The translations under genes and the position numbers were made by a program. The notes under the pieces were generated by a model, which was not told where the DNA came from, ran no database searches, and worked only from the letters and a program-made list of their open reading frames with translations. Source: a virus. Taken from it: a stretch of 64,000 nt of DNA. Within the stretch, counting starts at the first letter, position 1; every line of letters begins with the position of its first letter. Of this stretch, positions 1-64,000 are shown one piece after another. The stretch lies in IMG/VR virus record IMGVR_UViG_3300028422_001962, positions 1 to 64,000 of that record, one strand, 5' to 3'.

Positions 1-405
1 CTCCTGAAAATCAAGCCCTCCGTTTGAAGAGTACATACCCGGCACATTCTCCAGCACCGCGAACTTGGGGTATTCGTTATCTGTGGCGGCGAGCATCTCT
101 TTAATGATTCTGATTACTTGAAAGAACAGCCCTGACCGCTCGCCGTGCAGCCCAGCACGCTTGCCCGCCACCGAGAGGTCTTGGCAGCAAAAACCGCCCG
201 TGATGATGTCCACGGGTGGCACTTTAGAGCCGTCTATTATATTGATGTCGCCATAGTGTTGTACACTCGGCAACCGTTTGGTCGTGACCCTTATCGGGAA
301 CGGCTCAACTTCCGATGCCCAGAGCGGTTCGATGCCGGTTAAAATAGCTCCGAGCGGAAAACCGCCAGAGCCGTCGAATAGGGAGCCGAGAGTCAGTTTG
401 GTCAT
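1..405 (-). CDS. DNA (cytosine-5) methyltransferase, phage-encoded (partial, runs off window)
   Basis: Hand translation MTKLTLGSLFDGSGGF...ASEVE...GDI...ITGGFCCQDLSVAG...LENV gives motifs I, IV and VI; absent from ORF track. Confidence 0.9.
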   Translation of the reverse strand, partial: MTKLTLGSLFDGSGGFPLGAILTGIEPLWASEVEPFPIRVTTKRLPSVQHYGDINIIDGSKVPPVDIITGGFCCQDLSVAGKRAGLHGERSGLFFQVIRIIKEMLAATDNEYPKFAVLENVPGMYSSNGGLDFQE

Positions 406-47855: not shown

Positions 47856-49154
47856 ATGAGAGAGATGAAAGACAGCGGCATACAATGGCTCAAAGAAATA
47901 CCATCAAGCTGGAAACTTAAAAAAATTAAATACACATTGAAAGAGCGTATAGAAAAAAATAATCCTATAAGAACATCTGATATTTTGTCTCTTACTGCGA
48001 AGCAGGGTGTCATTCCTTATGACGAAAAAGAAGGTGGCGGTAATAAGCCAAAAGAGGATGTGAGCGCATATAGATTGGCATATCCTGGTGATATAGTGAT
48101 GAACAGCATGAACATTCTTTCTGGTTCGGTGGGATTGTCGCGTTATTTCGGATGTGTAAGTCCGGTATACTATATGCTCAGACCGTATAGCAATGAAGAC
48201 GACGTACGCTATTTTAACTATATTTTTCAGACTACCGTTTTTCAAAAAAGTTTATTTGGTCTCGGCAACGGTATTCTCATAAAAGAGTCTGGCAACGGTA
48301 AGTTAAACACGATTCGTATGCGAATACCGATGGACAAGTTCGGCAATTTAGTTATTCCAATAGCAACAGCACAAGAACAACGAATTATTGCCGACATCCT
48401 CGATAACAAATGCTCCGAAATAGACAGCCTTGTCGCGGATATCCAATCACAGATTGACACCTTGGAACAATATAAGCGGTCGGTCATCACTGAGGCGGTC
48501 ACAAAAGGCTTGAACCCGGATGCCGAGATGAAAGACAGTGGGATTGAATATGTAGGAACGATACCCGCACATTGGGATAAACATCCGCTATATTGCTATT
48601 TTGTAGAGAGGAAAAACAAAAACAGTCTTGGCAAAGAAGAAAACCTGCTATCTTTGAGCTATGGTCGCGTTATACAAAAAGATATCAACTCAAATGGCGG
48701 TTTACTTCCGGAAAGTTTTAATACCTATAACATTGTTGAAACCAACGATATCATTATCCGCCCAACTGACCTGCAAAATGATAAACGCAGTCTGCGTACC
48801 GGACTGGTAAAGGAACACGGTATTATTACATCTGCATATATAGCTTTAAAAGCAAAGGCAAACCTGATTTCCGGGTATTACCACTACCTGCTTCATGCGT
48901 TCGATGTTATGAAAGTGTTTTATAACATGGGTAACGGTGTGCGTCAGGGATTGAATTTCTCTGAATTTTCTCGTTTGATGGTTTTTTACCCTCCGTATGA
49001 GGAGCAAAAAGCAATCACTTCATATCTTGACAAAAAGTGCTCTGATATAGATTCTGTGATTGCCGATAAGCAGTCACAACTTGCATCCATTGATGAATAC
49101 AAAAAATCTCTCATCTACGAGTATGTCACAGGTAAAAAGGAGGTCACCGCATGA
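47856..49154 (+). CDS. hsdS: Type I RM specificity subunit
   Basis: Two MKDSGI.W/Y..IP..W repeats, two TRDs, EQ..I..LD.K coiled coils. Confidence 0.93.
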   Translation: MREMKDSGIQWLKEIPSSWKLKKIKYTLKERIEKNNPIRTSDILSLTAKQGVIPYDEKEGGGNKPKEDVSAYRLAYPGDIVMNSMNILSGSVGLSRYFGCVSPVYYMLRPYSNEDDVRYFNYIFQTTVFQKSLFGLGNGILIKESGNGKLNTIRMRIPMDKFGNLVIPIATAQEQRIIADILDNKCSEIDSLVADIQSQIDTLEQYKRSVITEAVTKGLNPDAEMKDSGIEYVGTIPAHWDKHPLYCYFVERKNKNSLGKEENLLSLSYGRVIQKDINSNGGLLPESFNTYNIVETNDIIIRPTDLQNDKRSLRTGLVKEHGIITSAYIALKAKANLISGYYHYLLHAFDVMKVFYNMGNGVRQGLNFSEFSRLMVFYPPYEEQKAITSYLDKKCSDIDSVIADKQSQLASIDEYKKSLIYEYVTGKKEVTA

Positions 49155-49552
49155 AAGTTGAATTTGCTGATTGTGAATTAGGGATTGGTGTTGCGTTATA
49201 TGTCTCTGGTACCGAATTTTTGAAAGCCGATAAGTCAAAAGATGAATTTTGTAGTCTTGCTGCAGCAACAGATGCTTTTTATAATCAACAAGGACTTGAC
49301 TACCATATTGGCTCAACAGACTATGATACGGTAAAACAATGGGTCAAAGCATCCGGCGCAGTAATATTCGCTATTGAATCAGACCGTTATGGACACAGAA
49401 AGTGGTATGAAATTTATGTGTCTACAGATAATCGCTACACCAGAATTATCTGGTCTGATGATGGCAGAGAGTATTATTCAAAAGATAGCTCAGATTTGAA
49501 AAAGACTCCGACTAATACTACAACAAGGCAGAAAGGAGGTCGTGACGTATGA
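49151..49552 (+). CDS. Hypothetical protein inserted between hsdS and hsdR
   Basis: ATGA overlaps at both ends. Confidence 0.7.
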   Translation: MKVEFADCELGIGVALYVSGTEFLKADKSKDEFCSLAAATDAFYNQQGLDYHIGSTDYDTVKQWVKASGAVIFAIESDRYGHRKWYEIYVSTDNRYTRIIWSDDGREYYSKDSSDLKKTPTNTTTRQKGGRDV

Positions 49553-52518
49553 ATAATATTCTTTCAGAAAAAGAATATCAGAAGTTTATAATGGAGCGTT
49601 TGGAACAAGACAACGGATATGTCATCCGTAAGGCTACCAGTTACGACCGCTTGTTTTCCATCGACCGTGAGCTGCTGTTTAAATTTCTGAACGATACGCA
49701 GGGCGCAACAATGGCGGCACTGCGAAAAATTTATAAAGACGATTTGGAAGAAACCATTGTCAGCTTCATTAACGCCGAGACAACAAAAACTCGCGGCAGT
49801 CTCTTGGACATACTGAAACATGGGATTGAAATCTCAAGCATGAAGCTGGAGCTGATGTATACCAAACCGGCTACCACCTTCAACAAGGAGCTTCTTGCAA
49901 ACTATGAAAAAAACATCTTCTCAGTCATGGAGGAGGTCTGGGCAAGCGACAATGAACGGGTCGATTTGGTCATCTTCCTGAACGGTCTAACCATCATGTC
50001 CTTTGAGCTGAAGTGCAATGTTGCCGGGCAGTCCTATCAGGATGCGATTTATCAGTACCGCTGTGAGCGCAATCCGAAGACGCGTCTGTTCCTGTTTAAG
50101 GCAGGATGCCTGGTCAACTTTGCGATGGATCTTGAAGAGGTCTATATGACCACGAAGCTGTCCGGTGACTCTACTTTCTTTCTGCCGTTCAATATTGGCA
50201 ACGGAGAAGGCGTCAACGCTGGAGCGGGCAATCCCACCTTTAAGGACAAGTACAGCGTGTCCTATATGTGGGAGGACATTCTCACAAAGGATACCGTGCT
50301 GGGCCTCATCAGCAAGTTCATTTTTGTTGAGACAAAGGAAATAGAGGACGAGTTTACAGGTAAGATCAAAAAGACCGAAAGCATAATTTTCCCACGTTAC
50401 CACCAGTTGGACGTTATCCGCAAGTTATTGGGCGACGTCCGCGAAAATAGAACTGCTCAGAATTATCTGATTCAGCACAGCGCAGGTTCCGGTAAAACGA
50501 ATTCTATCGCTTGGCTGGCCCACCGGCTCACGTCACTACATGACGAAGACGATAAAATCATCTTTGATAATGTGGTCATCATCACCGACCGCGTGGTTGT
50601 CGACCGTCAACTTCAGAAGGCCATCATGGGTATGGAGCACAAGACAGGACTTATCCGAGTGATGGACGACAAGTGCAACTCCGCCGACCTTGCAATCGCC
50701 CTCAAAGGCAACACAAAGATCATTGCAACCACGATTCAGAAATTTCCGTATATCGTGGACAGCGTCGTGGGTTTGAAAACGAAACGCTTCGCGGTCATTA
50801 TCGATGAGGCGCATTCATCTACTGCCGGGAAGGACATGGCGGCGGTCACACAGTCTTTGGGTACCGGTGAGCAGGATTACACGGATGTGCAGGACATCAT
50901 TGCCGACGAGATTGCCCGCAATGGCAAGCAGGTTAATGTGTCGATGTTTGCGTTTACTGCAACACCGAAGCCGACCACCCTTCAGCTTTTCGGGATGTTG
51001 AATACCAAGGGACAGCGCGAGGCGTTCCACGTTTACTCTATGAAGCAAGCCATTGAAGAGGGCTTCATTCTTGATGTGCTGCAAAACTACACAACTTACG
51101 ATACCTTCTATCAGATAAATAAAGAAATCGAGGACGACCCCCGCTGTAAGACTTCGGACGCCAAGCGGCAGATTGCCCGCTTCGTGGAACTGCACGAAAC
51201 GAACATCTCGCAGCGTATTGAAGTCATCGTGGAGCATTTCCGAACTTCCGTTATGGCGGAGCTTGGCGGTATGGCAAAAGCAATGGTGATTACAGCTTCC
51301 CGGCAGGGTGCTGTAAAATACCGTCAGGCTTTCGAGGACTTTATTACGAAAAAGGGCTACAAGGATATTCGCGCTTTGGTGGCCTTCTCTGGCAAGGTGA
51401 AACTGCCGGATAACGACACAGCCGAATATACCGAAGCCTCCATGAATGGTTTCTCTGAAGAGCAGCTCACGAAGGAATTTGAAAAGGACGATTATCAAGT
51501 CCTGCTTGTGGCAAATAAATATCAGACGGGATTCGACCAGCCGAAGTTGTGCGCTATGTATGTTATGAAAAAGCTGAAAGGTGTTACAGCCGTGCAGACG
51601 CTGTCCCGTTTGAACCGGATATTCCCGCCGTTTGAAAAGCACACATTCGTGTTGGACTTTGTGAACGACTATGCGGATATTACTGCTGCCTTTGCGCCGT
51701 ATTACACGACAACATTACTGTCGAATTCAGTTACACCCACGGCAATTTATGATCTTGAAGCTAATATCGACTCCTATACCGTTCTTGATCCGGATGATAT
51801 TGAGAAGGCGAACGACCTGCTCTACAGCGACAACATTACGTCGAAGGACAAGCAGAAACTGACCTTCTATTTCAAAAAGGCGAAAAATCTGATTGAAAAT
51901 TACGATGTGACCAAGCAGCAGGAAATCGTAGCTCTCATGCGCCACTTCGTTCGTTTTTATGAGTTTCTGCTCCAAGTTTCCTGTTTTGAGGATGTAGACC
52001 TACACAAGAAGTACAATTTCATTACTTACTTGCTTTCTTACATCAACATCAAGCATCCAGGCGGCGGCTATAACCTTGACGGAAAAATCAAGGCAACCAA
52101 TTTCGTCCAGAAAAAGGACGAGGAGCATAATAAATCTGATCTTGTCGCTCAACCGGTTATGAAACTGCCGACGGCCGAGAGCTTTGGCTTGACCGAAGCC
52201 AAGGAAGAAAAGCTTTCCCAAATTATCGCGGAAATCAATAGTCGCACAGGGAAAGCCTATGATAATGATGTTGCGGTAAAAGCAATGCTGCAAATCCGGG
52301 ACCTATTGCTAAAATCGGACAAGCTGAAAACCAGCGCCCGGAACAACACCGTCAAAGATTTTGAGTTTTCCTATTTTGACGATATTGACGATGCCCTGAT
52401 TGAGGGACTTTCGCAGAATCAGGACTTTTTCTCGATGCTTTTGAGCAACGAGGAAATAAAGCGGCAGGTGCTTGGCATATTCACCGACGAAATATACGCA
52501 AGCCTGCGTAAAGCATAA
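49549..52518 (+). CDS. hsdR: Type I RM restriction subunit
   Basis: RVD..LNG..ELK, QHSAGSGKT, IDEAH, FTATPK, TGFDQP, QTLSRLNR. Confidence 0.95.
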   Translation: MNNILSEKEYQKFIMERLEQDNGYVIRKATSYDRLFSIDRELLFKFLNDTQGATMAALRKIYKDDLEETIVSFINAETTKTRGSLLDILKHGIEISSMKLELMYTKPATTFNKELLANYEKNIFSVMEEVWASDNERVDLVIFLNGLTIMSFELKCNVAGQSYQDAIYQYRCERNPKTRLFLFKAGCLVNFAMDLEEVYMTTKLSGDSTFFLPFNIGNGEGVNAGAGNPTFKDKYSVSYMWEDILTKDTVLGLISKFIFVETKEIEDEFTGKIKKTESIIFPRYHQLDVIRKLLGDVRENRTAQNYLIQHSAGSGKTNSIAWLAHRLTSLHDEDDKIIFDNVVIITDRVVVDRQLQKAIMGMEHKTGLIRVMDDKCNSADLAIALKGNTKIIATTIQKFPYIVDSVVGLKTKRFAVIIDEAHSSTAGKDMAAVTQSLGTGEQDYTDVQDIIADEIARNGKQVNVSMFAFTATPKPTTLQLFGMLNTKGQREAFHVYSMKQAIEEGFILDVLQNYTTYDTFYQINKEIEDDPRCKTSDAKRQIARFVELHETNISQRIEVIVEHFRTSVMAELGGMAKAMVITASRQGAVKYRQAFEDFITKKGYKDIRALVAFSGKVKLPDNDTAEYTEASMNGFSEEQLTKEFEKDDYQVLLVANKYQTGFDQPKLCAMYVMKKLKGVTAVQTLSRLNRIFPPFEKHTFVLDFVNDYADITAAFAPYYTTTLLSNSVTPTAIYDLEANIDSYTVLDPDDIEKANDLLYSDNITSKDKQKLTFYFKKAKNLIENYDVTKQQEIVALMRHFVRFYEFLLQVSCFEDVDLHKKYNFITYLLSYINIKHPGGGYNLDGKIKATNFVQKKDEEHNKSDLVAQPVMKLPTAESFGLTEAKEEKLSQIIAEINSRTGKAYDNDVAVKAMLQIRDLLLKSDKLKTSARNNTVKDFEFSYFDDIDDALIEGLSQNQDFFSMLLSNEEIKRQVLGIFTDEIYASLRKA

Positions 52519-52529
52519 GGAGGGGTATC

Positions 52530-55361
52530 ATGTTTGAAAAATTTCGTTTGCAGGACGCGCTTGTAAAATACAAGCAGAATTTCGTTTCTACCCAATGGGG
52601 AAACGAGAAATACAAGTGGGAAGCAGTTAAGTTCTTTCAGGACAATTGGGATGTCAATGCAGCGAATTTTGCCTCAATGCTGACTCTCTCCCTCTCGAAA
52701 ACATATAATCTGCTCGCGTCTATGAACAACTTTCCAGCGCGAATGATTGAGAAATTTGCGGAAACGGCTCCCGAAGAAGTGCGGGCGATGTTCATTGCCC
52801 TGTTCGATGAAAGCAAGGATGTCGTTACCAGAATTACAGATTTTAAAGACCAGTCATCCATTCTCCTCGAAAAGTATGGCAACGGAGCGGGACAGCATTA
52901 TCAGTACGAAAATGCCGTCAGCACCTACTTATGGCTGCGTTATCCCGACAAATATTACATTTATAAATACGGCGAGATAAAAACCGCCGCAGATGAACTC
53001 GGCAGTGATTATCGATTCAAGAAAGGCGCATATGCGGACAATCTGCGCAATTTCTATAGCTTTTATGATGAGCTGTGTGCGGAAATCAAGAAGGATGAAG
53101 AACTCGTAAGTCTGCTCAAATCCCAGCTTACGGACGATTGCTATCCAGACCCGGAATACAGAACGCTTACAATCGATGTCGGCTTTTACATCAGCCGCTA
53201 CTTTTCGCAGAAGGAATCCGTAGCCACTGACGACTGGTTTCCGACAGATTACACGCCTAACATTTCTGTCGATGAGTGGGTAGAACTTCTTAATGATCCC
53301 GATGTATTTACGACTGGAAGCCTTGAAATCATGAAGCGCATGAAGGACTACGGCGGGCAGGCTACTTGTACTCAGCTCTCCATCAAATACGGTGAAACGA
53401 AGAATTTCTACAATAGTGGTTCTTCTGCTTTGGCGCGTCGTATTGCTGAAAAAACCGGCTGCCCTGTAATGGATAGAGATGAAGAAAACTCCCGCTGGTG
53501 GCCGATTCTGTATTTTGGACGCAATGCGGGTAAAGATGACTCTGGCAGCTATACATGGAAACTACGAGATGAGTTATCGGCCGCAATTGATAAAGTCGAT
53601 ATGTCTGAGGTTTCGCTTTATGCTGATGCGACTCCTTCAATTTGGAAAATAAGCCATGGAACCGAAAGCACCGGCATTTCAGATGAAAACAAGCAGATAT
53701 TTATGGATCGCGGCGTTATTGTGGTACATAGTACAACCAAGGCAAAAGCCACGTCAAAAGTGTCCCAGGGTGAGTCATTTACCTATTCCATGAAAATGGG
53801 CGATTATTTTTACTTGTGCTATGGCAGCAGAATTCAACTTTTAGGGCAAATCACAAGCAACGATGCTGTGGAAAATCCAGAAATGAAGGATGGCTGGTAT
53901 GAACGTCCATACCGAGTTGTCGCCATGCCGAAAATCAATGATTCCTATGATGGTGTAAAAAAGTGGTGGACGCCTAATGATAACTCCACTTGCATAAAGG
54001 TTGATGACAAGCCATTGTTTGAGGAATTAATTCTCAAACCGTATTTTGGCTTGACGGTTGTACAGCTTCTTGGCGATACCAATGAGCAGCACGGCTATTG
54101 GTGGTTAAATGCAAATCCGAAAATTTGGAGTTTTTCGGACATTGCTGTCGGAGAAGTTCAGTCATATACACTTTATAATGATAATGGCAACAAACGCCGC
54201 ATTTTTCAAAATTTCTTAGATGCAAAAGCCGGTGATATGATAATCGGCTATGAATCGAACCCTGTTAAACAGATTGTTGCGATTGGCAAGGTCAGTGCGG
54301 AACAAGATGGTGAAAAAATTTATTTTGAAAAAATCGAGGGGCTTTCCTCGCCGATTGATTATCAAACGCTGAAAAGCTGTTCCGAGCTGGAAAGAATGGA
54401 ATATTTCAGCAATCCGCAAGGCAGCTTATTTAAGCTGACAAAGGGCGAGTACGATTTTATCGTCGATATGATTCGAGATGAAAACCCACTTGCTCAAGAA
54501 GAAAAAGCAGAAGAGTACGACAAGGCGGACTTTCTTAATGAGGTTTACATGACAGAGAGCCGCTACGATATGCTTCTTTCTGTCCTGAAAAACAAAAAGA
54601 ACATCATTCTGCAGGGCGCACCCGGTGTCGGGAAAACTTTTGCAGCAAAGCGCCTTGCATACTCGATGATCGGAGAAATGGACGAAAACCGAATTGAATT
54701 CGTTCAGTTCCACCAGAATTACTCTTACGAAGATTTCATGATGGGCTATAAACCTGTGAATGATGGTTTTGAGTTGAAATACGGTATCTTTTATCGTTTT
54801 TGCCAAAAAGCTGCAAACCAGCCGGACAAAGATTTCTTCTTTATCATTGATGAAATCAATCGGGGTAATATGAGTAAAATCTTCGGTGAGCTACTCATGT
54901 TGATTGAGCGCGATTACCGTGGTACGAAGACAACACTCGCCTATAACGGCTTGGCATTCACGGTACCCAAGAACATATATATCATCGGTATGATGAATAC
55001 CGCCGACCGCAGTCTTGCCATGATTGATTATGCGCTTCGCCGCCGCTTCAGCTTCTTTGAGATCGAACCGGGCTTTGATTCCGATGGCTTTGTAAAATAT
55101 CAAAACGCCTTGAACAATGAAACATTTAATGAGCTTATTAATAAGGTACAAGAACTTAACAAGGAAATCTCACTTGATAAATCTTTAGGAAAAGGGTTCT
55201 GTATTGGACACAGTTATTTCTGCGGACAAGTTACCTGCTCGGACGAATGGATGCATTCCATTGTTGACTATGATATTCTGCCGATGCTGAGTGAGTATTG
55301 GTTTGACGATAGCGGAAAGCTACAGCGTTGGGAGAACATTTTGCGTGGTGTATTCCAATGA
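52530..55361 (+). CDS. mcrB: McrB GTPase with multi-domain N-terminus including an EVE-like domain
   Basis: YWWLNANPKIW..GD.IIGYE EVE-like; GAPGVGKT, IDEINRG, MNTAD, RRRF. Confidence 0.9.
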   Translation: MFEKFRLQDALVKYKQNFVSTQWGNEKYKWEAVKFFQDNWDVNAANFASMLTLSLSKTYNLLASMNNFPARMIEKFAETAPEEVRAMFIALFDESKDVVTRITDFKDQSSILLEKYGNGAGQHYQYENAVSTYLWLRYPDKYYIYKYGEIKTAADELGSDYRFKKGAYADNLRNFYSFYDELCAEIKKDEELVSLLKSQLTDDCYPDPEYRTLTIDVGFYISRYFSQKESVATDDWFPTDYTPNISVDEWVELLNDPDVFTTGSLEIMKRMKDYGGQATCTQLSIKYGETKNFYNSGSSALARRIAEKTGCPVMDRDEENSRWWPILYFGRNAGKDDSGSYTWKLRDELSAAIDKVDMSEVSLYADATPSIWKISHGTESTGISDENKQIFMDRGVIVVHSTTKAKATSKVSQGESFTYSMKMGDYFYLCYGSRIQLLGQITSNDAVENPEMKDGWYERPYRVVAMPKINDSYDGVKKWWTPNDNSTCIKVDDKPLFEELILKPYFGLTVVQLLGDTNEQHGYWWLNANPKIWSFSDIAVGEVQSYTLYNDNGNKRRIFQNFLDAKAGDMIIGYESNPVKQIVAIGKVSAEQDGEKIYFEKIEGLSSPIDYQTLKSCSELERMEYFSNPQGSLFKLTKGEYDFIVDMIRDENPLAQEEKAEEYDKADFLNEVYMTESRYDMLLSVLKNKKNIILQGAPGVGKTFAAKRLAYSMIGEMDENRIEFVQFHQNYSYEDFMMGYKPVNDGFELKYGIFYRFCQKAANQPDKDFFFIIDEINRGNMSKIFGELLMLIERDYRGTKTTLAYNGLAFTVPKNIYIIGMMNTADRSLAMIDYALRRRFSFFEIEPGFDSDGFVKYQNALNNETFNELINKVQELNKEISLDKSLGKGFCIGHSYFCGQVTCSDEWMHSIVDYDILPMLSEYWFDDSGKLQRWENILRGVFQ

Positions 55362-56422
55362 TTAAGAACAAGAGCATTTTCATAAAAAACATATATTATA
55401 TGCTTTCCTATGCCTTTACGACATTGAATCAATCTAATTTTGAAGATGTGGCGACTGAGGAATTTGAGAATATGCATAACCTCTTTGCCGCAATTCTCGC
55501 AAAAGGCATCGGCCAACAGTTGAAGCAGGGTTTGTATCGCGAGTATTTGAACAAAAGAGAAAATATGGCGGTCATGCGTGGAAAAATCGATATGTCTGGA
55601 ACTATCAAAAACAAGATTGCACGGCAGCAAATTCTTTCTTGCGATTATGATGATCTGTCGGAAAACAATCTCCTAAATCAAATCCTGAAGACCACAGTTA
55701 TGATTTTGCTCCGTCTGTCAAAAGTCAATACCGAGTATAAAGACGCGCTCAAAAAAGAAATGCTATTTTTCTCAAATGTTGATACCATCGAACCGGCATC
55801 AATCCGATGGTCGTCAATTCGTTTCCAGCGAAATAATCAGACTTATCGTATGCTCGTCAGTATCTGCCAGCTTATTCTGGAAGGAATGCTTTTGACAACG
55901 GAACAAGGCGAATACAAGCTGGCTTCTTTTGTTGACGAGCAGAGAATGTGCCGTTTATATGAGAAGTTTATATTGGAATACTACAGCAAGAAGTTTCCTG
56001 CATTGAGTGTGAGTGCATCGCAGATTCCGTGGGCCTTGGATGACGGCATTGGAACGATGCTCCCCACAATGCAGAGTGATATTACACTTTCTCACGGAAA
56101 CGAAGTGCTTATTATTGATGCAAAGTATTATTCTCATACCACGCAGGCGCAATATGATGTACATACGCTTCATTCCGGCAACCTGTATCAGATATTTACC
56201 TATGTAAAGAACAGAGACTCCGAATTTGGAGAGAAACCACATAAGGTATCAGGAATGCTTCTGTATGCCAAAACCGATGAAACAATACAGCCAGACAATG
56301 AATATCGGATGAGTGGTAACAAAATCAGCGTAAGGACACTCGACTTGAATTGCGAGTTTCCTGTAATCGCTGCACAGCTAAATAGCATCGCTAAGAGTCA
56401 TTTTGGTGAGATCATTGCGTAA
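55358..56422 (+). CDS. mcrC: McrC endonuclease
   Basis: IKNIYYMLSYA; QSDI..IIDAKYY..LYQIFTY; ATGA overlap with mcrB. Confidence 0.92.
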   Translation: MIKNKSIFIKNIYYMLSYAFTTLNQSNFEDVATEEFENMHNLFAAILAKGIGQQLKQGLYREYLNKRENMAVMRGKIDMSGTIKNKIARQQILSCDYDDLSENNLLNQILKTTVMILLRLSKVNTEYKDALKKEMLFFSNVDTIEPASIRWSSIRFQRNNQTYRMLVSICQLILEGMLLTTEQGEYKLASFVDEQRMCRLYEKFILEYYSKKFPALSVSASQIPWALDDGIGTMLPTMQSDITLSHGNEVLIIDAKYYSHTTQAQYDVHTLHSGNLYQIFTYVKNRDSEFGEKPHKVSGMLLYAKTDETIQPDNEYRMSGNKISVRTLDLNCEFPVIAAQLNSIAKSHFGEIIA

Positions 56423-56447: not shown

Positions 56448-57482
56448 ATGCCCTTTACTATCGTCCGGCAGGACATCACAAAAATGAAAGTTGACGCCAT
56501 TGTCAATGCCGCCAACACCGATCTGCAAATGGGCGGTGGGGTTTGCGGAGCTATATTCAAAGCTGCGGGAGTACTTGAACTCCAAGCCGCCTGTGATAAA
56601 CTCGCTCCGATAAAGACGGGCGAGGCAATTATTACTCCAGGCTTCAATCTCTCAGCTAAGTTTGTTATCCATGCGGTGGGTCCGGTTTATCGGCATTGGA
56701 GCAAAGAGCAGAACGAGCAGCACCTTCACGCTGCCTATACGAACTCGCTGAAAAGAGCTGTTGAAAACAAGTGTGAAAGCATAGCATTTCCTTTGATTTC
56801 AAGTGGTATCTATGGCTATCCAAAAGACGAGGCACTTAAAGTGGCTACCTCAGCGATTCAAGATTTCCTCAAAGATTACGATCTTGAGGTGACCATTGTG
56901 GTGTTTGACAAGTCAGCATTCACCATCAGCCGCGAACTACTCGGAGAAGTCGAAAGCTACATTGATGAGCATTATATCGAAACACACCAAATAAAGCGGC
57001 GACAACTGCTTGATATAGAGCGGGAAGCCTTTTACGAAGCTGACAAAGATGTTAGTAAATATAACAAGCCTCTTTTTGAAGAAATGCTCGCTCCGTCTGT
57101 TGGTGCGCCCGCTCCACTTGATGATTTGGTCGGCAATCTGGACGAGCCGTTCTCCGCGACACTCCTGCGGCTGATTGACGCCAAGGAAAAGACGGATGTG
57201 GAAGTTTACAAACGTGCAAATCTTGACCGAAAGCTGTTCTCCAAGATACGGAGCAACAAAGGCTATACGCCGAGTAAGCGCACTGCCCTTGCTCTTGCCG
57301 TGGCGCTGGAATTGTCACTCAGCGAAACTGATGACCTCTTGGAGCGGGCAGGATATGCACTTTCCCATGCAGCCAAGTTCGATGTAATCGTGGAATATTT
57401 CATCACTAACGGTAAATATGACGTTTTCGAGATAAATGAAGTGCTGTTTGAGTACGACCAGCCGCTGTTGGGAGGGTGTTGA
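56448..57482 (+). CDS. Macrodomain (ADP-ribose) protein with C-terminal HTH-like domain
   Basis: DAIVNAAN..GGGVCGAI, IHAVGP, FPLISSGIYGYP; ANLDRKLFSKIR. Confidence 0.88.
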   Translation: MPFTIVRQDITKMKVDAIVNAANTDLQMGGGVCGAIFKAAGVLELQAACDKLAPIKTGEAIITPGFNLSAKFVIHAVGPVYRHWSKEQNEQHLHAAYTNSLKRAVENKCESIAFPLISSGIYGYPKDEALKVATSAIQDFLKDYDLEVTIVVFDKSAFTISRELLGEVESYIDEHYIETHQIKRRQLLDIEREAFYEADKDVSKYNKPLFEEMLAPSVGAPAPLDDLVGNLDEPFSATLLRLIDAKEKTDVEVYKRANLDRKLFSKIRSNKGYTPSKRTALALAVALELSLSETDDLLERAGYALSHAAKFDVIVEYFITNGKYDVFEINEVLFEYDQPLLGGC

Positions 57483-58792
57483 TTGTGGATTATTTTCTGA
57501 TTATAGCATTGCCAATAATAGCACTCGCTCAAATTGCCGGAGGGGTAGTTTTTTTGTGTAAAAAAACAAATTCCAACGATAACAACGCCATAAGCACAGA
57601 ACAGTCCGATTCAACTAACTCGGAGGTACTTATGCCAGTAGGATGTGTTAAGGGCTACGAAATAACTATACCAATTGAACTTCTGCCTGCGACAACCCAG
57701 ATTGAGGATAAGAGCCTGTTTGAAATTACTGACCACACGGTCATTTCTCGAATTTCTGGACTAATACCTTTTACATTGCAAAATGGGACAAGGATAATGG
57801 CAAACAATGCTCTCAACCCACTAAAAGGTACAGAGTTAGTAAAAATGGATATTCCATTTTCACAACTCACGAAGTCGAAAGACATGGCAGGTGCTGCAAG
57901 AGGTTATGTTCACGGAGGTAAGGGCGTAGCGGCACAAGCAAATTTAACTAAAGTTGACATGACCAAAGTCACAAAAGCGACTGCTGTCGCTAACGGAGTG
58001 GCGAATGTGATGAATGTTGGCTCTTTAGTCGTCGGACAGTATTATATGTCCGAGATAAGTTCCAAGTTAGAAACTATGACAAAGAGCATAGATAAAATCA
58101 GCGATTTTCAAGACAGGGAGTTTAAGAGTCGGATATTATCGGTGATTACTCTTGTTGGAGAAATTTCTCAATTCAGCTCTGAAATAATGGAAGACGATGA
58201 GCAGCGAACACTTAAACTTTCAGCTTTAGAAAACTTAAAAGCTACTGCTACCGAACTGCTGGGGCAAGTAAACATTACAATATCTGGAATCACTCAGAAA
58301 AGCCCTAATCCTAATTATGAAGATTATCAGTACAAAGTTGGAGATCTCAAAGTTTTAGTTGAGTATCAAAACATATTAGTTGCTGTTCTCGCGGAAATTA
58401 GCAAGTTGACGTATTTGTTAGGTAAAGGGGCAATTTCGACTGAACGCAGCTATGCCATATACAGTAAGTATTTGGAACAAGCCAAACAAACTCGAACCCT
58501 TCTTGGACAATGGCACGATAAGCAAGTTACGGCACTGCATATTGATTTAAACAAAGAGCGCATTTCCAAAGCGGGGTTTGAAGCTATTATTTCGGCTCCA
58601 CTGGGCTTGATAGATGATAAATTTAAGTTTAAGGCCTTAAAACAAAGCCTTGTTTACGAGATAAGCACCCAAGCTAACCAAAGTCTCGAAAGTCCAGATG
58701 AACCAAAACGTATCTACGATGAAGATGTAGAAATCATCATAAAGGACGGCAAATATTATTATCTACACGAATCACTGGAAACGGATGAATAA
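57476..58792 (+). CDS. Hypothetical membrane-anchored helical protein
   Basis: N-terminal hydrophobic segment; VVGQYYMSEI..KL; start uncertain. Confidence 0.6.
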   Translation: MLIVDYFLIIALPIIALAQIAGGVVFLCKKTNSNDNNAISTEQSDSTNSEVLMPVGCVKGYEITIPIELLPATTQIEDKSLFEITDHTVISRISGLIPFTLQNGTRIMANNALNPLKGTELVKMDIPFSQLTKSKDMAGAARGYVHGGKGVAAQANLTKVDMTKVTKATAVANGVANVMNVGSLVVGQYYMSEISSKLETMTKSIDKISDFQDREFKSRILSVITLVGEISQFSSEIMEDDEQRTLKLSALENLKATATELLGQVNITISGITQKSPNPNYEDYQYKVGDLKVLVEYQNILVAVLAEISKLTYLLGKGAISTERSYAIYSKYLEQAKQTRTLLGQWHDKQVTALHIDLNKERISKAGFEAIISAPLGLIDDKFKFKALKQSLVYEISTQANQSLESPDEPKRIYDEDVEIIIKDGKYYYLHESLETDE

Positions 58793-58890: not shown

Positions 58891-59544
58891 ATGAAAAAAG
58901 GATTAACGGAATTAGTATTTATACTCGACAAAAGCGGATCGATGGGTGGATTAGAAACCGATACTATAGGTGGCTACAATACTATGCTTAAGAAGCAGCA
59001 GACGGTCGATGGCGAATGCCATATCACAACGGTGCTTTTTGATAACAACTACGAGCTACTCCACGACCGTATAGATATCAAGGCGGTCAGCCCAATCACC
59101 GAAAAGGAGTACCAAGTCGGCGGATCAACTGCGCTTCTTGACGCAATTGGGAGGACGATACACAAAATCGGCAATGCCCAGCAGCACACCGCCGACGATT
59201 ACCGTGCAGAAAAGGTCATGTTCGTCATCATCACCGACGGCGAGGAGAACAGCAGCCGCGAGTACAGCTCGGACAAAGTCAAGGCGCAGATTGAGCGGCA
59301 GAAGGCAAAATACGGTTGGGAGTTTATCTTCCTTGGCGCGAATATTGACGCTGTGCAGACAGCTTCGCGCTTCGGCATAGCACCCGACCGCGCTCAGAAT
59401 TATCACGCTGACAGCGAGGGCGTGGAACTCAACTTCCGTGTAATGAGCGAGGCTGTCGCCACCTTCCGAGAATGCGCCGCCATGCCGGAGGGTTGGAATG
59501 ACGAGATACAGAAGGACTATAAACGACGCGGCAGCAAGCGTTAA
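58891..59544 (+). CDS. vWA domain protein
   Basis: MIDAS DKSGSM, GSTALLDA, ITDG.EN. Confidence 0.9.
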   Translation: MKKGLTELVFILDKSGSMGGLETDTIGGYNTMLKKQQTVDGECHITTVLFDNNYELLHDRIDIKAVSPITEKEYQVGGSTALLDAIGRTIHKIGNAQQHTADDYRAEKVMFVIITDGEENSSREYSSDKVKAQIERQKAKYGWEFIFLGANIDAVQTASRFGIAPDRAQNYHADSEGVELNFRVMSEAVATFRECAAMPEGWNDEIQKDYKRRGSKR

Positions 59545-59581
59545 TAAGAGATGATCGTAGCCTACTGCGTAAGGAGAAAAT

Positions 59582-61342
59582 ATGAGTATTATAAAACATA
59601 ATTTATTGCCCAAGCAAAAGTCGCGTAAAAACCATCTTGAAGTTGAGGTAGATTTATATCCTTACGCATCAGAGCTATATGACGAATTGAATTCTTTGGG
59701 AATAATTCAAAGAATGAAAGAAATACCCCAGTTGGGAGTTATCAAGGTTCCGAAAAAGCTTGAAAAAAGCAGATACGATTATGTAATGCTGCAATTGTAC
59801 TTGCATCAGCTTATTAAAAATAAATTACAGAGTCAGTTAAGACTGACATATAACAATCCGGTAAAATCTTATGAATTCAGGCCTGATTACCATTACAATA
59901 CAAAAGAAGACAAGCCAACTATCGGTGATGTCCTTCAGCTACTTACAATCGTGTATAACATCGGCCATTTTTATAATACATTTACATCCTCACGAGCAGT
60001 CACAATGATGGCCACCGAAGATGATACATTTAAGAAAATGATTGTATCTGCTTCGACTGACAATAAATATGCACCTGTTGTAAATAAGCTACTTACAGAC
60101 AATGATTATCAACACTTTCACCTGATAAATTCTATTTTGATTTTGGAGCATTGCGACCAAGCTAAACAATCAGTAATACTGGCAAAGGAAATATTATATG
60201 CATACATAAACGAGAAGAGTTTACCCACTGAGAGTAAACTCGCATATGCATTTTCAGTTTTTAGAAATGTCCGCACCGTATCCTATATGGCGTATGATTT
60301 ACAAATTGCCAACACACCGCTTACTATAGATTTGTGTAATCAAGACGCCGTTCTGGTTTTGCTCAGGGAATTATTGTCAGAATATAACAATAGCAGGTCT
60401 TCATCCAGACTTATCGAATCAGTTAGCAAATTGCTGGATGATACGGTGTATAACGAAAACTCAAATGCTATCTGCTATTATAAAATATCAAGGAAAATCG
60501 TTTCATTCCTTCAAAGGAAAGAGTACTTCGAGGAAAGAAAATATTTCGATGATTTTTTTCTCAATAGAACGAGTTTATTAAATTGTTCCTATTCACACAA
60601 TAGAGATTACGTACAAGAGGCAATATTAAAGATTACTTTTCAACGAAGTGAAAGACATATATCTGAGGATACTTTTTTCACACTTGAACGCATTAATAAT
60701 ACTCGTGTTGGGTATTATGATCGACATACTGGTGAGCAAACGATACTGGTTTCTCTTAAAAAACATTGCGCTTCAAAGACTGCTGCTGCTCTTCATGTAT
60801 TAAGAACCGTAGTAGGTGCTCTGAGAAAAATTGAAGGTATCGCGCCAAATGATATCCGTTTTTTGCTATGCGTTAAATTCTTCTTGTTCTATTTATTTAA
60901 CGAAAATCCTGTTTTGATTAAGCCAACAATCGATGAACACACCTGCGTTATATGTACAAGAGGAAAAAACAGTCGAATAACTGAAGTCAAAAAACTTCTC
61001 AATGATGGGTGTGGAAATCCAGATCAAAATCATGAAGCGGCATTTATGGTTAATTGCTTAGAAGAAGATAAGCTGAATGATACTACAATATGTGTCCCCG
61101 CAAGTATAGTAGTTTATCAAAAAGATGCCGTTGGCCGAAAACTCTGTGAATTTGATGGAATCGTTATACGTCCTATGCGAAAGCAGAAACAAGTATTATT
61201 TCTTGAAGCTAAAAACACTACAGATAAGCCTTCACTTGCAAAAAATTGCTTAATCGAAAAATTAGATAAATTGTCATTTTCATATTCAGCAACTGATATC
61301 CAGACAGTTAATTATGATGCAGAATTAGAAGTTACAATCTAA
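59582..61342 (+). CDS. Inactive HD/dNTPase-like domain fused to PD-(D/E)XK nuclease
   Basis: QRMKEIPQLG..SRYDY..YNIGH..; C-terminal EFDGIV..FLEAK. Confidence 0.65.
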   Translation: MSIIKHNLLPKQKSRKNHLEVEVDLYPYASELYDELNSLGIIQRMKEIPQLGVIKVPKKLEKSRYDYVMLQLYLHQLIKNKLQSQLRLTYNNPVKSYEFRPDYHYNTKEDKPTIGDVLQLLTIVYNIGHFYNTFTSSRAVTMMATEDDTFKKMIVSASTDNKYAPVVNKLLTDNDYQHFHLINSILILEHCDQAKQSVILAKEILYAYINEKSLPTESKLAYAFSVFRNVRTVSYMAYDLQIANTPLTIDLCNQDAVLVLLRELLSEYNNSRSSSRLIESVSKLLDDTVYNENSNAICYYKISRKIVSFLQRKEYFEERKYFDDFFLNRTSLLNCSYSHNRDYVQEAILKITFQRSERHISEDTFFTLERINNTRVGYYDRHTGEQTILVSLKKHCASKTAAALHVLRTVVGALRKIEGIAPNDIRFLLCVKFFLFYLFNENPVLIKPTIDEHTCVICTRGKNSRITEVKKLLNDGCGNPDQNHEAAFMVNCLEEDKLNDTTICVPASIVVYQKDAVGRKLCEFDGIVIRPMRKQKQVLFLEAKNTTDKPSLAKNCLIEKLDKLSFSYSATDIQTVNYDAELEVTI

Positions 61343-61370
61343 AAATATGCTTTATTATATTGAGAACCCT

Positions 61371-61424
61371 CGCTAACGATTTATACTTGCGCTAACGAAA
61401 CCTAAACCTGCGCTAACGATTTAT
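61371..61424 (+). repeat. Three CGCTAACGA direct repeats
   Basis: At 61371, 61390 and 61411. Confidence 0.75.
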
Positions 61425-61496
61425 CCGGCAAATGAACACTGTATCAAAATTATCAGCCTTTGCCAACGGAGGCGGCGAGACTCTAACCCTATTATT

Positions 61497-61720
61497 GACT
61501 TGTTTCCGAGAACGGATTAAAACAAAATAAAAGTGTGGATATATTTCCACGAACGGAGATTATCCCAAAAACCATCATCGACCTATTCCCGAGAACGATA
61601 AATCAGCAAACCACATACCAGACATCAATATGATGCTATCGTTCCATGTGGAGAGTGTTGTATTGATAACAAGAAAAGATAGGTAAATGTTTAGAAAGCC
61701 TTGAAATAAAGGGGTTTCGA
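61497..61720 (+). repeat. att junction at right end of element 2
   Basis: Motifs at 61497, 61538 and 61580; ACATCAAT.TGATGCTATCGTTCCA core shared with 34160-34183. Confidence 0.85.
61645..61686 (+). pseudogene. rlmD: rlmD/rumA 3'-end fragment
   Basis: Encodes HVESVVLITRKDR*. Confidence 0.8.
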
Positions 61721-61910
61721 GGATAGGGTAGAAACTCTGGCTCTCGGATTTTTTTGCTGCCACCTCCTCCATCTCACCAAGCCATAGGAAAGTTAAGTAG
61801 CAAATATAATATATATTTATATAGCAAAGAGAAAAATATATATTATACATTGAAATGTTTATACAAATTTGATATACTTAATTCAAACCAATAACAGGGG
61901 AGTAAGGACG

Positions 61911-62879
61911 ATGGAAAAGAACAGCAGGCTTTTATGCCTTCTGCAGTTATTGCAAAGAGAAACTGATGAGGAGCATATGCTGACAACTTCGCAGCTCATA
62001 GCAAAACTTGCTGAGCTTGATATTTCATCCCATCGTGAAACAATAGCCTCGGATATTAAGCTGCTCCAAAATGCCGGTTATGATATTATCTGTAATAAAA
62101 GCACACAAAATAAATACTTTCTTGCAAGCCGTGAATTTGAACCAGTGGAACTTAAAATGCTTGCCGATGCGGTTAATGCGGCACAGTTTATTTCAGCAGA
62201 TAAATCTAAACAGCTCATAGATAAGCTTTTTTCATCTGTAAGTAAATATCTAGAGGAACAGCTTAAATGTTCTGTAAATTCTGCGAACCTCAACAAGCAT
62301 AACGGAAATTCATGCATATATTGTGCAGACCTAATAAACACCGCAATTGCTCAGGGTGTTAAGATAAAATTTCAATATTATGAGTATACGGCAAAAAAAG
62401 AAAAAGTGCTGAAGCATAATGGCTTCACATATACAGTTAGTCCATATGCGACAGTATGGAATGATGACCGCTATTATCTTGTCGGATATTGTGAAAAGCA
62501 TAAAGATATTACTGTTTTCAGAATTGACAGAATAACGAATATAGCGCTCACTAAGAATATCTCAAAGCCTTGTCCAGAAGATTTCTGCCTCAAGGCTTTC
62601 CTTTCACAGACATTTAAAATGTTTCATGGTGAGCTTTCTGAAGTGAATCTTAAATGTCATAGTAAGCATATGAAGGCAATTGTAGATAAGTTCGGGGATA
62701 ATGTTAAAACAGAAATAATTGATAAAAACTATTTTTCTGCAAAGGTTAACGTTGAACTCAGTCCAACGTTTTATAGCTGGATTTTTCAGTTCAAGGGAGA
62801 ACTTGGCATACAATCACCACAAAAAGCAATTGACGAATTTGTGCAAATGATAGAAAGCGTTAAACAGGTGTCGGAATAA
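61911..62879 (+). CDS. WYL-domain transcriptional regulator (wHTH-WYL-WCX)
   Basis: LQRETDEEH, VSPYA..W..DRYYL, FRIDRI. Confidence 0.9.
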   Translation: MEKNSRLLCLLQLLQRETDEEHMLTTSQLIAKLAELDISSHRETIASDIKLLQNAGYDIICNKSTQNKYFLASREFEPVELKMLADAVNAAQFISADKSKQLIDKLFSSVSKYLEEQLKCSVNSANLNKHNGNSCIYCADLINTAIAQGVKIKFQYYEYTAKKEKVLKHNGFTYTVSPYATVWNDDRYYLVGYCEKHKDITVFRIDRITNIALTKNISKPCPEDFCLKAFLSQTFKMFHGELSEVNLKCHSKHMKAIVDKFGDNVKTEIIDKNYFSAKVNVELSPTFYSWIFQFKGELGIQSPQKAIDEFVQMIESVKQVSE

Positions 62880-62897
62880 TCCGTCACCTGATTTTTT
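62865..62897 (+). promoter_or_regulatory. Palindrome at WYL gene end (operator or terminator)
   Basis: CAGGTGTCGGA-ATAA-TCCGTCACCTG then ATTTTTT; TTGACG follows. Confidence 0.5.
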
Positions 62898-62985
62898 GTC
62901 TATTGACGTAGGAACGTTTGTTTGATAATATATAAGCAGACGTTCACAGTAATGAGAACATAGCTCAAAGAAAGGGGTTAGCTAA

Positions 62986-63360
62986 ATGACTTTCGGCGAA
63001 TACATAAAAGAAAAACGTCTGGAAAAAGGCATTACACTGCGAGGTTTTGCAGAAATGATCGACATATCTCCAGTGTATATGTGCAACCTTGAAAAAGGCA
63101 GACGTGCGGCACCTAGTGAAGTTGTGCTGGAAAGCATATCATCAAAACTTATGCTCAGCAAAGAAGAAAAAGATATGCTTTATGATCTTGCATCAAAGGA
63201 ACAAACTGCTAAAAATCCTGTTCCGAAAGACCTTAATGGATTTCTTAAGGACAATAGAGTTATCGTTTCAGCACTCAGAACTGCAAAAGATCTTGACGCA
63301 ACAGACGAGGAGTGGCAAGAGTTTATTGACAAACTTAAAAACAGTCGTGAAAATCAATAG
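62986..63360 (+). CDS. Xre-family repressor
   Basis: FGEYIKEKR..TLRGFA..ISPVYMCNLEKGRR; homolog of 15323-15715. Confidence 0.9.
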   Translation: MTFGEYIKEKRLEKGITLRGFAEMIDISPVYMCNLEKGRRAAPSEVVLESISSKLMLSKEEKDMLYDLASKEQTAKNPVPKDLNGFLKDNRVIVSALRTAKDLDATDEEWQEFIDKLKNSRENQ

Positions 63361-63378
63361 AAAGGACAAGCAAAATAT

Positions 63379-63981
63379 ATGGGAGATATCTGTTATAGAA
63401 AAAGCACATTGGATTTAATAGCAAATAAATTACTAAAGAATTATCAGCATGGTAAATTTCTATATGGTGATCCACAGTCTGTTCCGATAGAACAGATAAT
63501 AGAGCTTGAATACGGACTTAATATTGAATATGTCTGCCTTAGAAAAAATGGAACTGTTCTCGGACAAACTGTGTTTGAAAACTGCTTTGTGCCTTTTTAT
63601 GATAGTGACAATGAGCAGTACAGTATTATGGAAGTTCAGTCAGGAACGATACTCGTTGATATTTCTCTACTTGAGGACGAAAACAGCGGTAGGCTGAGAT
63701 ATACTCTTGCACATGAACTCGCACATTGGCTTATTCATCAGAAAATATATGAAAATTCACAGCAGTCAGCGGCTAAAGTTGATGGAAATATTGACTGTCA
63801 AACCGAATGGCAGGCTGATACTCTCGCTGCTTCAATTCTTATGCCGAGAATGCAGATTAAAAAAGCCTTCTACAAGACTTTAAATTTATCTGCAAAAGGA
63901 AAAATATCATATATGGCAGAGCTTTTCGATGTTTCAAAGCAAGCAATGTCAATTTGCCTTAAAACACACAACATGATATAG
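63379..63981 (+). CDS. ImmA/IrrE-family metallopeptidase
   Basis: TLAHELAHW, EWQAD.LAASILMP, LFDVSKQA. Confidence 0.9.
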   Translation: MGDICYRKSTLDLIANKLLKNYQHGKFLYGDPQSVPIEQIIELEYGLNIEYVCLRKNGTVLGQTVFENCFVPFYDSDNEQYSIMEVQSGTILVDISLLEDENSGRLRYTLAHELAHWLIHQKIYENSQQSAAKVDGNIDCQTEWQADTLAASILMPRMQIKKAFYKTLNLSAKGKISYMAELFDVSKQAMSICLKTHNMI

Positions 63982-64000
63982 CTGTAAACAAATACTAATT

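Follow-up and report, generated by a model that had tools for sequence, protein, structure and literature searches.

The window examined here is the whole 64,000-nucleotide (nt) stretch that covers positions 1 to 64,000 of the IMG/VR virus record IMGVR_UViG_3300028422_001962. It contains a defense island that ends at a gene for a 586-residue protein, after which come a WYL regulator and an XRE/ImmA pair. The gene is a single open reading frame (ORF) that begins with ATG, and its span in Table 1 includes the stop codon. The original prediction, made from the letters of the DNA, was that this protein joins a catalytically dead SAMHD1-like deoxynucleoside triphosphate (dNTP) hydrolase domain to a restriction-type nuclease and acts as a single-gene defense system. 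Every motif string quoted in that prediction is present in the translation: QRMKEIPQLG at residues 43-52, KSRYDYV at 62-68, YNIGHFYNTF at 125-134, RTVSYMAYD at 231-239, EFDGIV at 523-528, and FLEAK at 540-544.

The 586-residue protein has no credible match in Pfam, NCBIfam, PADLOC-DB v2.0.0, or PHROGs, and a phmmer search of PDB sequences with it gave no useful match. It has many relatives nonetheless. Among 8000 scored candidates from a collection clustered at 90% identity, 419 full-length relatives (570-650 residues) were found at an expectation value (E) of 1e-3 or less, and an exhaustive HMMER search gave 339 family representatives at 50% identity, 200 of them at E<=1e-10 and 94 at E<=1e-30. 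Of the 120 relatives that were listed, almost all are 585-600 residues in length; a Pfam domain is absent from every one, and where a name is attached, in four cases, it is "hypothetical protein." The family is common in gut metagenomes, where a single 90%-identity cluster may hold up to 303 member sequences. For what follows we used an alignment of 67 full-length family members, reaching down to about 20% identity to the 586-residue protein, and a second alignment of 15 sequences from the most remote clade of the family (the distant clade). When each of the 67 members was scanned against Pfam, only unrelated chance matches appeared, each in one member, and at E<=0.1 no member was reported to match the Pfam HD model. 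One distant member bears the source label "HD superfamily phosphohydrolase," and an ESM Atlas look-up, which serves as a lead only, gave clusters with HD and HD_assoc_2 domains as the nearest named neighbors (score 0.84). The family is uncharacterized, yet it is a real protein family that standard annotation does not see.

The full-length protein was modeled with AlphaFold2 from the 67-member alignment without templates, and the model has a mean predicted local distance difference test score (pLDDT) of 94.7 and a predicted template modeling score of 0.91. In this model, residues 1-432 form an HD-like helical core (about 26-340) followed by a C-terminal lobe (about 341-432). When the full model was compared with the PDB by Foldseek, all rows shown were entries of SAMHD1 or of E. 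faecalis EF1143, and the three matches at E<=0.001 were all chains of one fungal SAMHD1, the best at 5.9e-4. We then re-aligned Foldseek's top 999 chains with VIA-align. EF1143 (2o6i_A; Z 16.6, 311 aligned positions, root-mean-square deviation (rmsd) 4.9) and human SAMHD1 (6u6z_B; Z 16.4, 337 aligned, rmsd 3.9) both matched over model residues 1..432, whereas Dgt-type deoxyguanosine triphosphate (dGTP) hydrolases (dGTPases) and CloA matched over about 24..338 only (Z 12.6-14.2, 235-265 aligned, rmsd 3.7-4.6). Because the match to SAMHD1 and EF1143 spans residues 1..432, the model has the full SAMHD1-type core including its C-terminal lobe and lies nearer to that clade than to Dgt.

Searches with sequence profiles agree with this placement. 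All 26 distinct matches of the distant-clade profile among PDB sequences were SAMHD1 or related HD phosphohydrolases (9mr6_A at E 2.1e-5, 2q14_A at 0.007, 2o6i_A at 0.051, and others at 0.27-0.39); the 67-member profile alone gave 0 matches in the PDB search. For profile-to-profile alignment with hhalign, the comparison set was 12 genuine HD+HD_assoc_2 proteins (PF01966 plus PF19276) from genomes of the same phylum. These SAMHD1-type proteins were reached only via Pfam HD_assoc_2; the HD matches from the genome of the window itself were proteins of the HD-GYP and Dgt types and a CCA-adding enzyme, and a search with a degenerate DNA pattern yielded just one HD protein, of the YqeK type. The distant clade aligned to the 12 proteins with a probability of 90% (E 1.5e-6) and the 67-member alignment with a probability of 58% (E 9.6e-5). 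Against six Dgt-type dGTPases from related genomes, the 67-member alignment gave a probability of 0.2%, a comparison in which the subfamily is too distant and the alignment shallow. Judged from the predicted structure and the profiles together, the resemblance of residues 1-432 to HD dNTPases is more than chance. A homodimer prediction for the same residues scored 0.01 against a mark of 0.42, which speaks neither for nor against oligomerization.

The active site of SAMHD1 gives a point of reference for the pocket of this fold: its metal ligands are reported as H167, H206, D207, and D311, and its phosphate contacts as R164, H233, and Y315 (PMC4592219). In the family, both HMMER and hhalign place R64-Y-D-Y67 of motif I opposite the R-F-(E/Q)-H of SAMHD1-type proteins, so that Y67 stands at the place of the first metal-binding His; Y67 is found in 98% of the 67 members and R64 in 92%. 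The same two methods place Y125-N126-I-G128-H129 of motif II opposite H-D-I-G-H. Here the HD dyad has become a variable residue at 125 and an Asn at 126 (91% of members) while the Gly-His pair is retained, with G128 in 100%, H129 in 97%, and the nearby T133 in 100% of members. The distant clade, at about 20% identity, reads H-H-T-R-Y-E-Y and N-I-G-H at these two sites, and the 67 members include none with a conserved HD dyad. At motif IV, R231 and D239 are present in all 67 members, and the spacing of R231-x-x-S-Y-x-x-x-D239 equals that of D-x-x-D-Y-x-x-R-D in dNTPases. A forced global hhalign alignment put the two opposite each other at low confidence and one residue out of the spacing register, and in either register the ligand position, which falls on R231 or on its variable neighbor, has no conserved acidic residue. 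In the register that pairs Tyr with Tyr and Asp with Asp, the invariant Arg231 would occupy the position of the last metal-binding Asp; in the other it would lie beside that position. A further residue, H180, may correspond to the phosphate-contacting H233 of SAMHD1, a pairing that comes from no alignment tool. Since the metal-binding His...His-Asp...Asp set is gone, the N-terminal module most likely cannot hydrolyze dNTPs.

The replacements are not scattered changes. Nine positions are invariant in all 67 members (G52, G128, T133, R231, D239, E485, D525, E542, and K544), and ten more are conserved in at least 90% (R64, Y67, Q71, Q119, N126, H129, F134, H180, E523, and G526). Counting positions conserved in at least 80% of members, there is 1 in the N-terminal strands (residues 1-25), 26 in the HD-like core (26-340), 1 in the C-terminal lobe (341-432), and 15 in the nuclease domain (433-586). 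Most of the strongest positions of the HD-like core, those at 90% or above, lie in or beside the motifs that form the dNTPase active site. Because the replacements Y67, N126, and R231 are themselves conserved, we take the pocket to have a new job and not to be a relic.

This pattern bears on a quite unlikely alternative, namely that the N-terminal module is a structural or oligomerization scaffold, or a non-canonical enzyme acting through H129, H180, and D239, and that the nuclease is constitutive and serves a mobile element or DNA repair instead of immunity. Those three residues are possible metal ligands that are still conserved, but the conserved substitutes at 67, 126, and 231 argue for a new pocket function and not for decay.

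The same pattern bears on another unlikely explanation, in which the protein is a modification-dependent or nucleic-acid-guided restriction endonuclease and its SAMHD1-like module reads DNA or RNA in the manner of a type IV system. The module might bind nucleic acid that is single-stranded or modified, or else a modified nucleotide that has been flipped out, and deliver the nuclease to foreign DNA. SAMHD1 does bind single-stranded DNA and RNA, and complexes of this kind (6u6z, 6u6y, 8d94, and 8tdv) are among the best structural matches. The allosteric sites of SAMHD1 are also reported to accept oligonucleotides, with binding enhanced by phosphorothioate modification (PMC7854603). Family genes stand beside type I, type IIG, and GmrSD-type restriction genes, and the island in the window contains an EVE-domain McrBC system. 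However, conservation is concentrated in the former catalytic pocket and is low in the N-terminal strands that partly build the allosteric and nucleic-acid sites of SAMHD1; the kept R64 and G128-H129 are residues of the dNTPase triphosphate pocket, which fit a free nucleotide better than a DNA strand; and no modification gene is a conserved neighbor.

The remaining part of the protein, residues 433-586, carries the signature of a PD-(D/E)xK-type nuclease (Table 1). A separate model of residues 425-586 has a pLDDT of 97.5, and in the full-length model the conserved acidic and Lys residues fall on the helix and strands listed in the table. We compared the nuclease domain model with 48,161 representative PDB chains in an exhaustive VIA-align search. 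Only 6 of these chains reached Z>=5 and none reached Z>=8, and the six comprise only nuclease domains from the Card1/Can2/Can1 group: 6wxw (Card1; Z 5.9, 123 aligned), 8q3y (Can2; Z 5.8, 120 aligned), 1xmx (VC1899; Z 5.5, 110 aligned), 6sce (Can1; Z 5.5, 119 aligned), 7bdv (Can2; Z 5.4, 105 aligned), and 8bao (Can2; Z 5.3, 120 aligned). Lower-ranked matches were restriction enzymes: PaqCI, MspJI, NucS, SdaI, and an HsdR fragment. In this comparison with the alpha-beta-beta-beta-alpha-beta core of solved nucleases, the best matches are nucleases only, at modest Z. The PF09002 model (Card1_endonuc) did not match the 586-residue protein at E<=1. By motif and predicted fold, the domain is therefore best filed in the PD-(D/E)xK superfamily and not in the Card1 family. 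The architecture that the original prediction had proposed is supported in each of its structural parts: the SAMHD1/dNTPase-like fold by Foldseek and VIA-align on the predicted structure and by the profile alignments, the loss of the metal-binding H, HD, and D by profile alignment and by conservation across the 67 members, and the fused restriction-type nuclease with its E.D..E.K pattern by the invariance of E485, D525, E542, and K544 in 67/67.

Table 1. Positions of the features of the 586-residue protein gene, of its surroundings in the window, and of a gene unit at related loci
Feature	Positions	Strand	Basis or remark
Ribosome-binding site AAGGAG	59571..59576	+	read directly, 5 nt before ATG
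Whole gene, 586 residues plus stop codon	59582..61342	+	ORF reading
Residues 1-432, SAMHD1/EF1143-like dNTPase core without metal ligands	59582..60877	+	VIA-align, Foldseek, profile matches
Motif I, residues 43-68 (QRMKEIPQLG ... KSRYDYV)	59708..59785	+	HMMER and hhalign against SAMHD1-type proteins
Motif II, residues 119-134 (Q119 ... Y125-N126-I-G128-H129 ... T133-F134)	59936..59983	+	hhalign and HMMER
H180	60119..60121	+	conserved in 91% of members
Motif IV, residues 231-239 (R-T-V-S-Y-M-A-Y-D)	60272..60298	+	register taken from spacing
Residues 433-586, predicted PD-(D/E)xK-type nuclease domain	60878..61339	+	domain model, VIA-align, motif
E485, invariant Glu	61034..61036	+	helix 480-495 before beta-sheet in model; 67/67 members
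E523-F-D525	61148..61156	+	strand junction 520-529; D525 in 67/67, E523 in 95% of members
E542-A-K544, (D/E)xK	61205..61213	+	strand 538-542 region; E542 and K544 in 67/67 members
AAA_13 ATPase	43393-45669
Type I hsdM	45738-47843
Type I hsdS	47856-49154
Type I hsdR	49549-52518
EVE-domain and AAA_5 McrB-like gene	52530-55361		overlaps McrC
McrC	55328-56422
Macro-domain protein	56448-57482		weak DarG match
438-residue protein, hydrophobic N-terminus, no family	57476-58792		overlaps Macro-domain gene by 7 nt
vWA protein	58891-59544		phrog_7371, E 6.6e-58
Gap downstream of the 586-residue protein gene	61343-61868		526 bp
Repeats containing GCGCTAACGA	61365-61424
Three 24-nt direct-repeat copies	61491-61597		41-42 nt apart
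Perfect 14-nt inverted repeat	61805-61847		just before WYL gene
WYL-domain regulator	61869-62879		PADLOC WYL, E 1.5e-26
XRE helix-turn-helix	62986-63360
ImmA/IrrE M78 peptidase	63379-63981
Three-gene unit at related loci	L005:2044-7977; L006:2044-7977; L007:2008-7977; L010:2193-7896		upstream of family members

The explanation that we favor, with confidence a little short of even, is that the protein is a single-gene defense DNase gated by a nucleotide pocket that does not hydrolyze its ligand. Residues 1-432 would descend from a dNTP triphosphohydrolase of the SAMHD1/EF1143 type that has lost its metal set, and residues 433-586 would be a PD-(D/E)xK nuclease whose predicted catalytic set (E485, D525, E542, and K544) is intact. 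Because the most conserved part of the N-terminal module is the old active-site pocket, in which R64 and G128-H129 are kept and an invariant Arg is gained, we infer that a (d)NTP or a related phosphorylated nucleotide is bound there and left uncleaved. Phage infection would change the occupancy of this pocket, because dNTP levels shift or because the phage makes a non-canonical nucleotide; the change in occupancy would alter the conformation or assembly of the protein and license the nuclease to cut DNA; and the outcome would be restriction of the invader or abortive infection. It is conceivable, though we are doubtful, that the protein is in particular a SAMHD1-derived pseudo-enzyme turned immune receptor, with an invariant Arg in exchange for the metal center, that reads the dNTP pool or non-canonical phage dNTPs and directly gates the fused DNase.

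There are precedents for gating of this kind. Can2 and Card1 are nucleases that are gated by ligands and controlled by CARF domains. These two, which are the nearest structural relatives of the nuclease domain, bear on the gated-nuclease reading together with CloA, a dGTPase that is reported to sense phage-raised deoxythymidine triphosphate (dTTP) at allosteric sites (10.1101/2025.07.09.663793).

The genomic context of the family comes from a pattern-based scan of one genome per species, which gave 13 loci at 50-64% identity in Bacillota, Veillonella, a metagenome-assembled genome labeled Mollicutes, Succinivibrio, and Bacteroides. The homologues at 57-64% identity are in Bacillota, Veillonella, and Succinivibrio and the one at 50% is in Bacteroides, and the family is one that is exchanged across phyla. 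The family is rare, and its distribution is patchy. The gene is present in 1 of 41 related genomes, the window's own, and a profile search found the family in 3 of 401 genomes of the phylum, counting the window's own and one weak match. The other two are a 632-residue frame that probably belongs to the distant clade (L068, G090:C28:13531-14388; E 3.6e-19) and the weak match in a 436-residue frame (L069, G260:C156:837-1172; E 2.4e-4), which may represent either a genuine HD enzyme or an intermediate.

No conserved partner emerged when the ORFs of the 13 loci and the window were clustered, in that no neighbor is common to more than 5 loci, and none of the window's neighboring genes recurs in the 13 related loci. 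The neighbor shared most often is a type IIG-like enzyme of about 1560-1580 residues with Eco57I methylase and ResIII domains, found in L005, L006, L007, L010, and L013; in L013 its gene is split and on the opposite strand. A type I HsdR gene lies directly upstream of the family gene in L002, and in L001 the family gene is preceded by a GmrSD gene and followed by an integrase. Altogether, restriction genes lie upstream of or beside the family gene in 7 of the 12 loci with flanks. Among the 65 ORFs within three genes of a family member at these 12 loci there were 8 matches to ResIII, 5 to Eco57I, 2 to type I restriction endonuclease, and 1 to GmrSD, as well as 1 each to HEC-05, bSEFIR, and SngC. 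The prediction of a single-gene system agrees with the count of 0 conserved neighbors in 13 loci, and a defense role fits both the restriction genes at 7 of 12 loci and the presence of the gene in 1 of 41 related genomes.

Upstream of family members from different phyla there is also a recurring three-gene unit, made up of a 75-residue helix-turn-helix protein (not in L010), a 342-344-residue protein without a Pfam match, and a 1562-1579-residue Eco57I/ResIII enzyme. The unit looks like a mobile restriction cassette with the family gene at its 3′ end.

The spacing of these genes raises a very unlikely alternative, that the protein is a back-up, or guard, nuclease for abortive infection, which is silenced by a neighboring restriction enzyme or monitors it and fires when a phage disables that enzyme, with the nucleotide pocket as a secondary regulator. 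Such an arrangement would follow the example of PrrC, an anticodon nuclease from the type Ic prr locus. The family gene starts 16-17 nt after a restriction gene on the same strand (HsdR-type or Eco57I/ResIII type IIG) in L002, L005, L006, and L007; the gap is 98 nt in L010, and in L001 the family gene lies 192 nt after the GmrSD gene. Three different restriction types thus precede it, as would be expected for a module that rides in restriction operons. However, L005, L006, and L007 carry the same flanking genes and are not independent, and the partner varies by locus and is not identified next to the family gene in 5 of 12 loci, which makes a guard of one specific partner unlikely.

The context also adds to the case for and against a scaffold or non-canonical enzyme with a constitutive nuclease. 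The block of low guanine-plus-cytosine (GC) content beginning with the gene points to mobile-island cargo, and an integrase adjoins the family gene in L001. On the other hand, the family was not found in 72,556 plasmid or 50,697 phage records, and a constitutive PD-(D/E)xK nuclease would be toxic unless paired with a cognate methylase or an immunity partner, as is well established for restriction systems.

Several observations weigh against a nucleotide-gated defense DNase. Only motifs I and II align to real dNTPases with statistical support, and the register of motif IV is uncertain by one residue. The N-terminal strands, which bear the allosteric-site residues in SAMHD1, are not conserved, and so canonical allosteric regulation is unlikely to be retained. 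For the C-terminal domain, Foldseek gave no match to the model of residues 425-586 at E<=0.001, and the VIA-align Z values of 5.3-5.9 would, taken alone, reflect a common arrangement, although they agree with the sequence pattern. The hhalign comparison with nine Card1_endonuc proteins did not reach significance (E 0.013, probability 3%), and the single stretch that it aligned covers just the catalytic motif, in a weak pairing of E-F-D-G...E-A-K with E-F-D-V...E-C-K. On the side of function, no named anti-phage system in PADLOC-DB v2.0.0 matched, the closest being a weak partial match to PDC-M38B (E 0.0054, residues 135-228), and so no tested system vouches for a defense role. In 5 of 12 loci no adjoining restriction gene was identified, and many of the 65 neighbors scanned are housekeeping or metabolic genes. 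Finally, it is possible that the gene in the window is co-transcribed with unrelated upstream genes.

A gated DNase of this kind would stand between several known systems. With dNTPases of the SAMHD1/EF1143/COG1078 type, which have an antiviral role in animals and bacteria, the family shares the whole catalytic-core fold including the C-terminal lobe, and both the Q-R-L-x-x-I-x-Q-L-G ... R-[FY]-x-[HY] of motif I and the I-G-H loop are recognizable in it. Unlike them, it has Y67, a variable residue followed by N126, and R231 in place of the metal set, has a nuclease fused at the C-terminus, and lacks a conserved N-terminal allosteric region; with the metal-binding set replaced, hydrolysis of dNTPs by the family is not expected from its sequences. 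With Card1, Can2, and Can1 the family shares the order of an N-terminal module, which in the family would bind a ligand, followed by a PD-(D/E)xK nuclease, and their E-F-D ... E-x-K motifs line up, if weakly. Its sensor, in contrast, is derived from SAMHD1 and not from CARF, it does not match PF09002, and no CRISPR or cyclase gene is a conserved neighbor at its loci.

The comparison with Clover CloA and the defensive dGTPases is similar. The fold is again that of a dNTPase (the structural match to CloA has Z 14.0), and CloA is described as a phage defense protein whose activity is set by nucleotide levels, which for the family is a proposal. However, those enzymes are active and deplete dGTP, whereas the family has no hydrolase site and its presumed effector is the nuclease, and it has no CloB-like partner. 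A 2026 survey describes fusions of dGTPase domains with SAM, NLR, TIR, CARD, death-domain, and SIR2 partners, in which the dGTPase is the active effector (PMC13519002). These fusions resemble the family in combining a dNTPase-type domain with other immune modules in one protein, but they include no nuclease partner and no HD domain that is inactive. A domain-based survey would miss the family because the Pfam HD model does not detect it. Our literature search found no published description of an architecture that combines a dNTPase pseudo-enzyme with a nuclease.

The dNTPase-fold proteins of immunity, including SAMHD1, bacterial dGTPases, and CloA, are known as enzymes that starve viruses of dNTPs. 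What may be new here, at somewhat less than an even chance, is an immune protein that couples a nuclease to a new sensor, a dNTPase pseudo-enzyme. If so, the dNTPase fold would have a second use, in a receptor that has given up cutting its ligand and controls a nuclease instead. On the more doubtful reading of a SAMHD1-derived immune receptor, the family would be an unrecognized class of immunity in which a single protein senses nucleotides, and it would form a bacterial branch of the SAMHD1 lineage with sensing separated from hydrolysis. It is a compact single-gene candidate that is invisible to standard annotation, and the replacement of metal by arginine would be a testable case of how the pocket of a pseudo-enzyme is rebuilt. 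Should the pocket bind a dNTP, or one that a phage has modified, the protein would also offer a direct test of how nucleotide pools are read by cells as a sign of infection and, possibly, a nucleotide-controlled DNase for tool building.

The remaining features concern the gene's surroundings in the window (Table 1). The Macro-domain, 438-residue, and vWA genes upstream are on the same strand and may form a module; none of them occurs in the 13 related loci. The vWA gene stops at 59544, which leaves a gap of 37 nt before the 586-residue protein gene, and this gap holds no consensus promoter. We considered an operon with the upstream 438-residue and vWA genes and rejected it, because those genes are absent from the 13 related loci and the GC content shifts at the start of the gene. 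This shift, from about 45% to about 35%, falls exactly at the gene start, and GC content stays low through the WYL, XRE, and ImmA genes to the end of the window (about 59500-64000), which suggests that the block from the 586-residue protein gene onward was acquired separately. WYL, XRE, and ImmA/IrrE genes often regulate defense or prophage modules; the three found here are not conserved beside the family in the related loci. Between the gene and the WYL regulator, the downstream gap contains the direct repeats, the repeats with GCGCTAACGA, and the inverted repeat listed in Table 1, and the repeats in this gap may be regulator sites.

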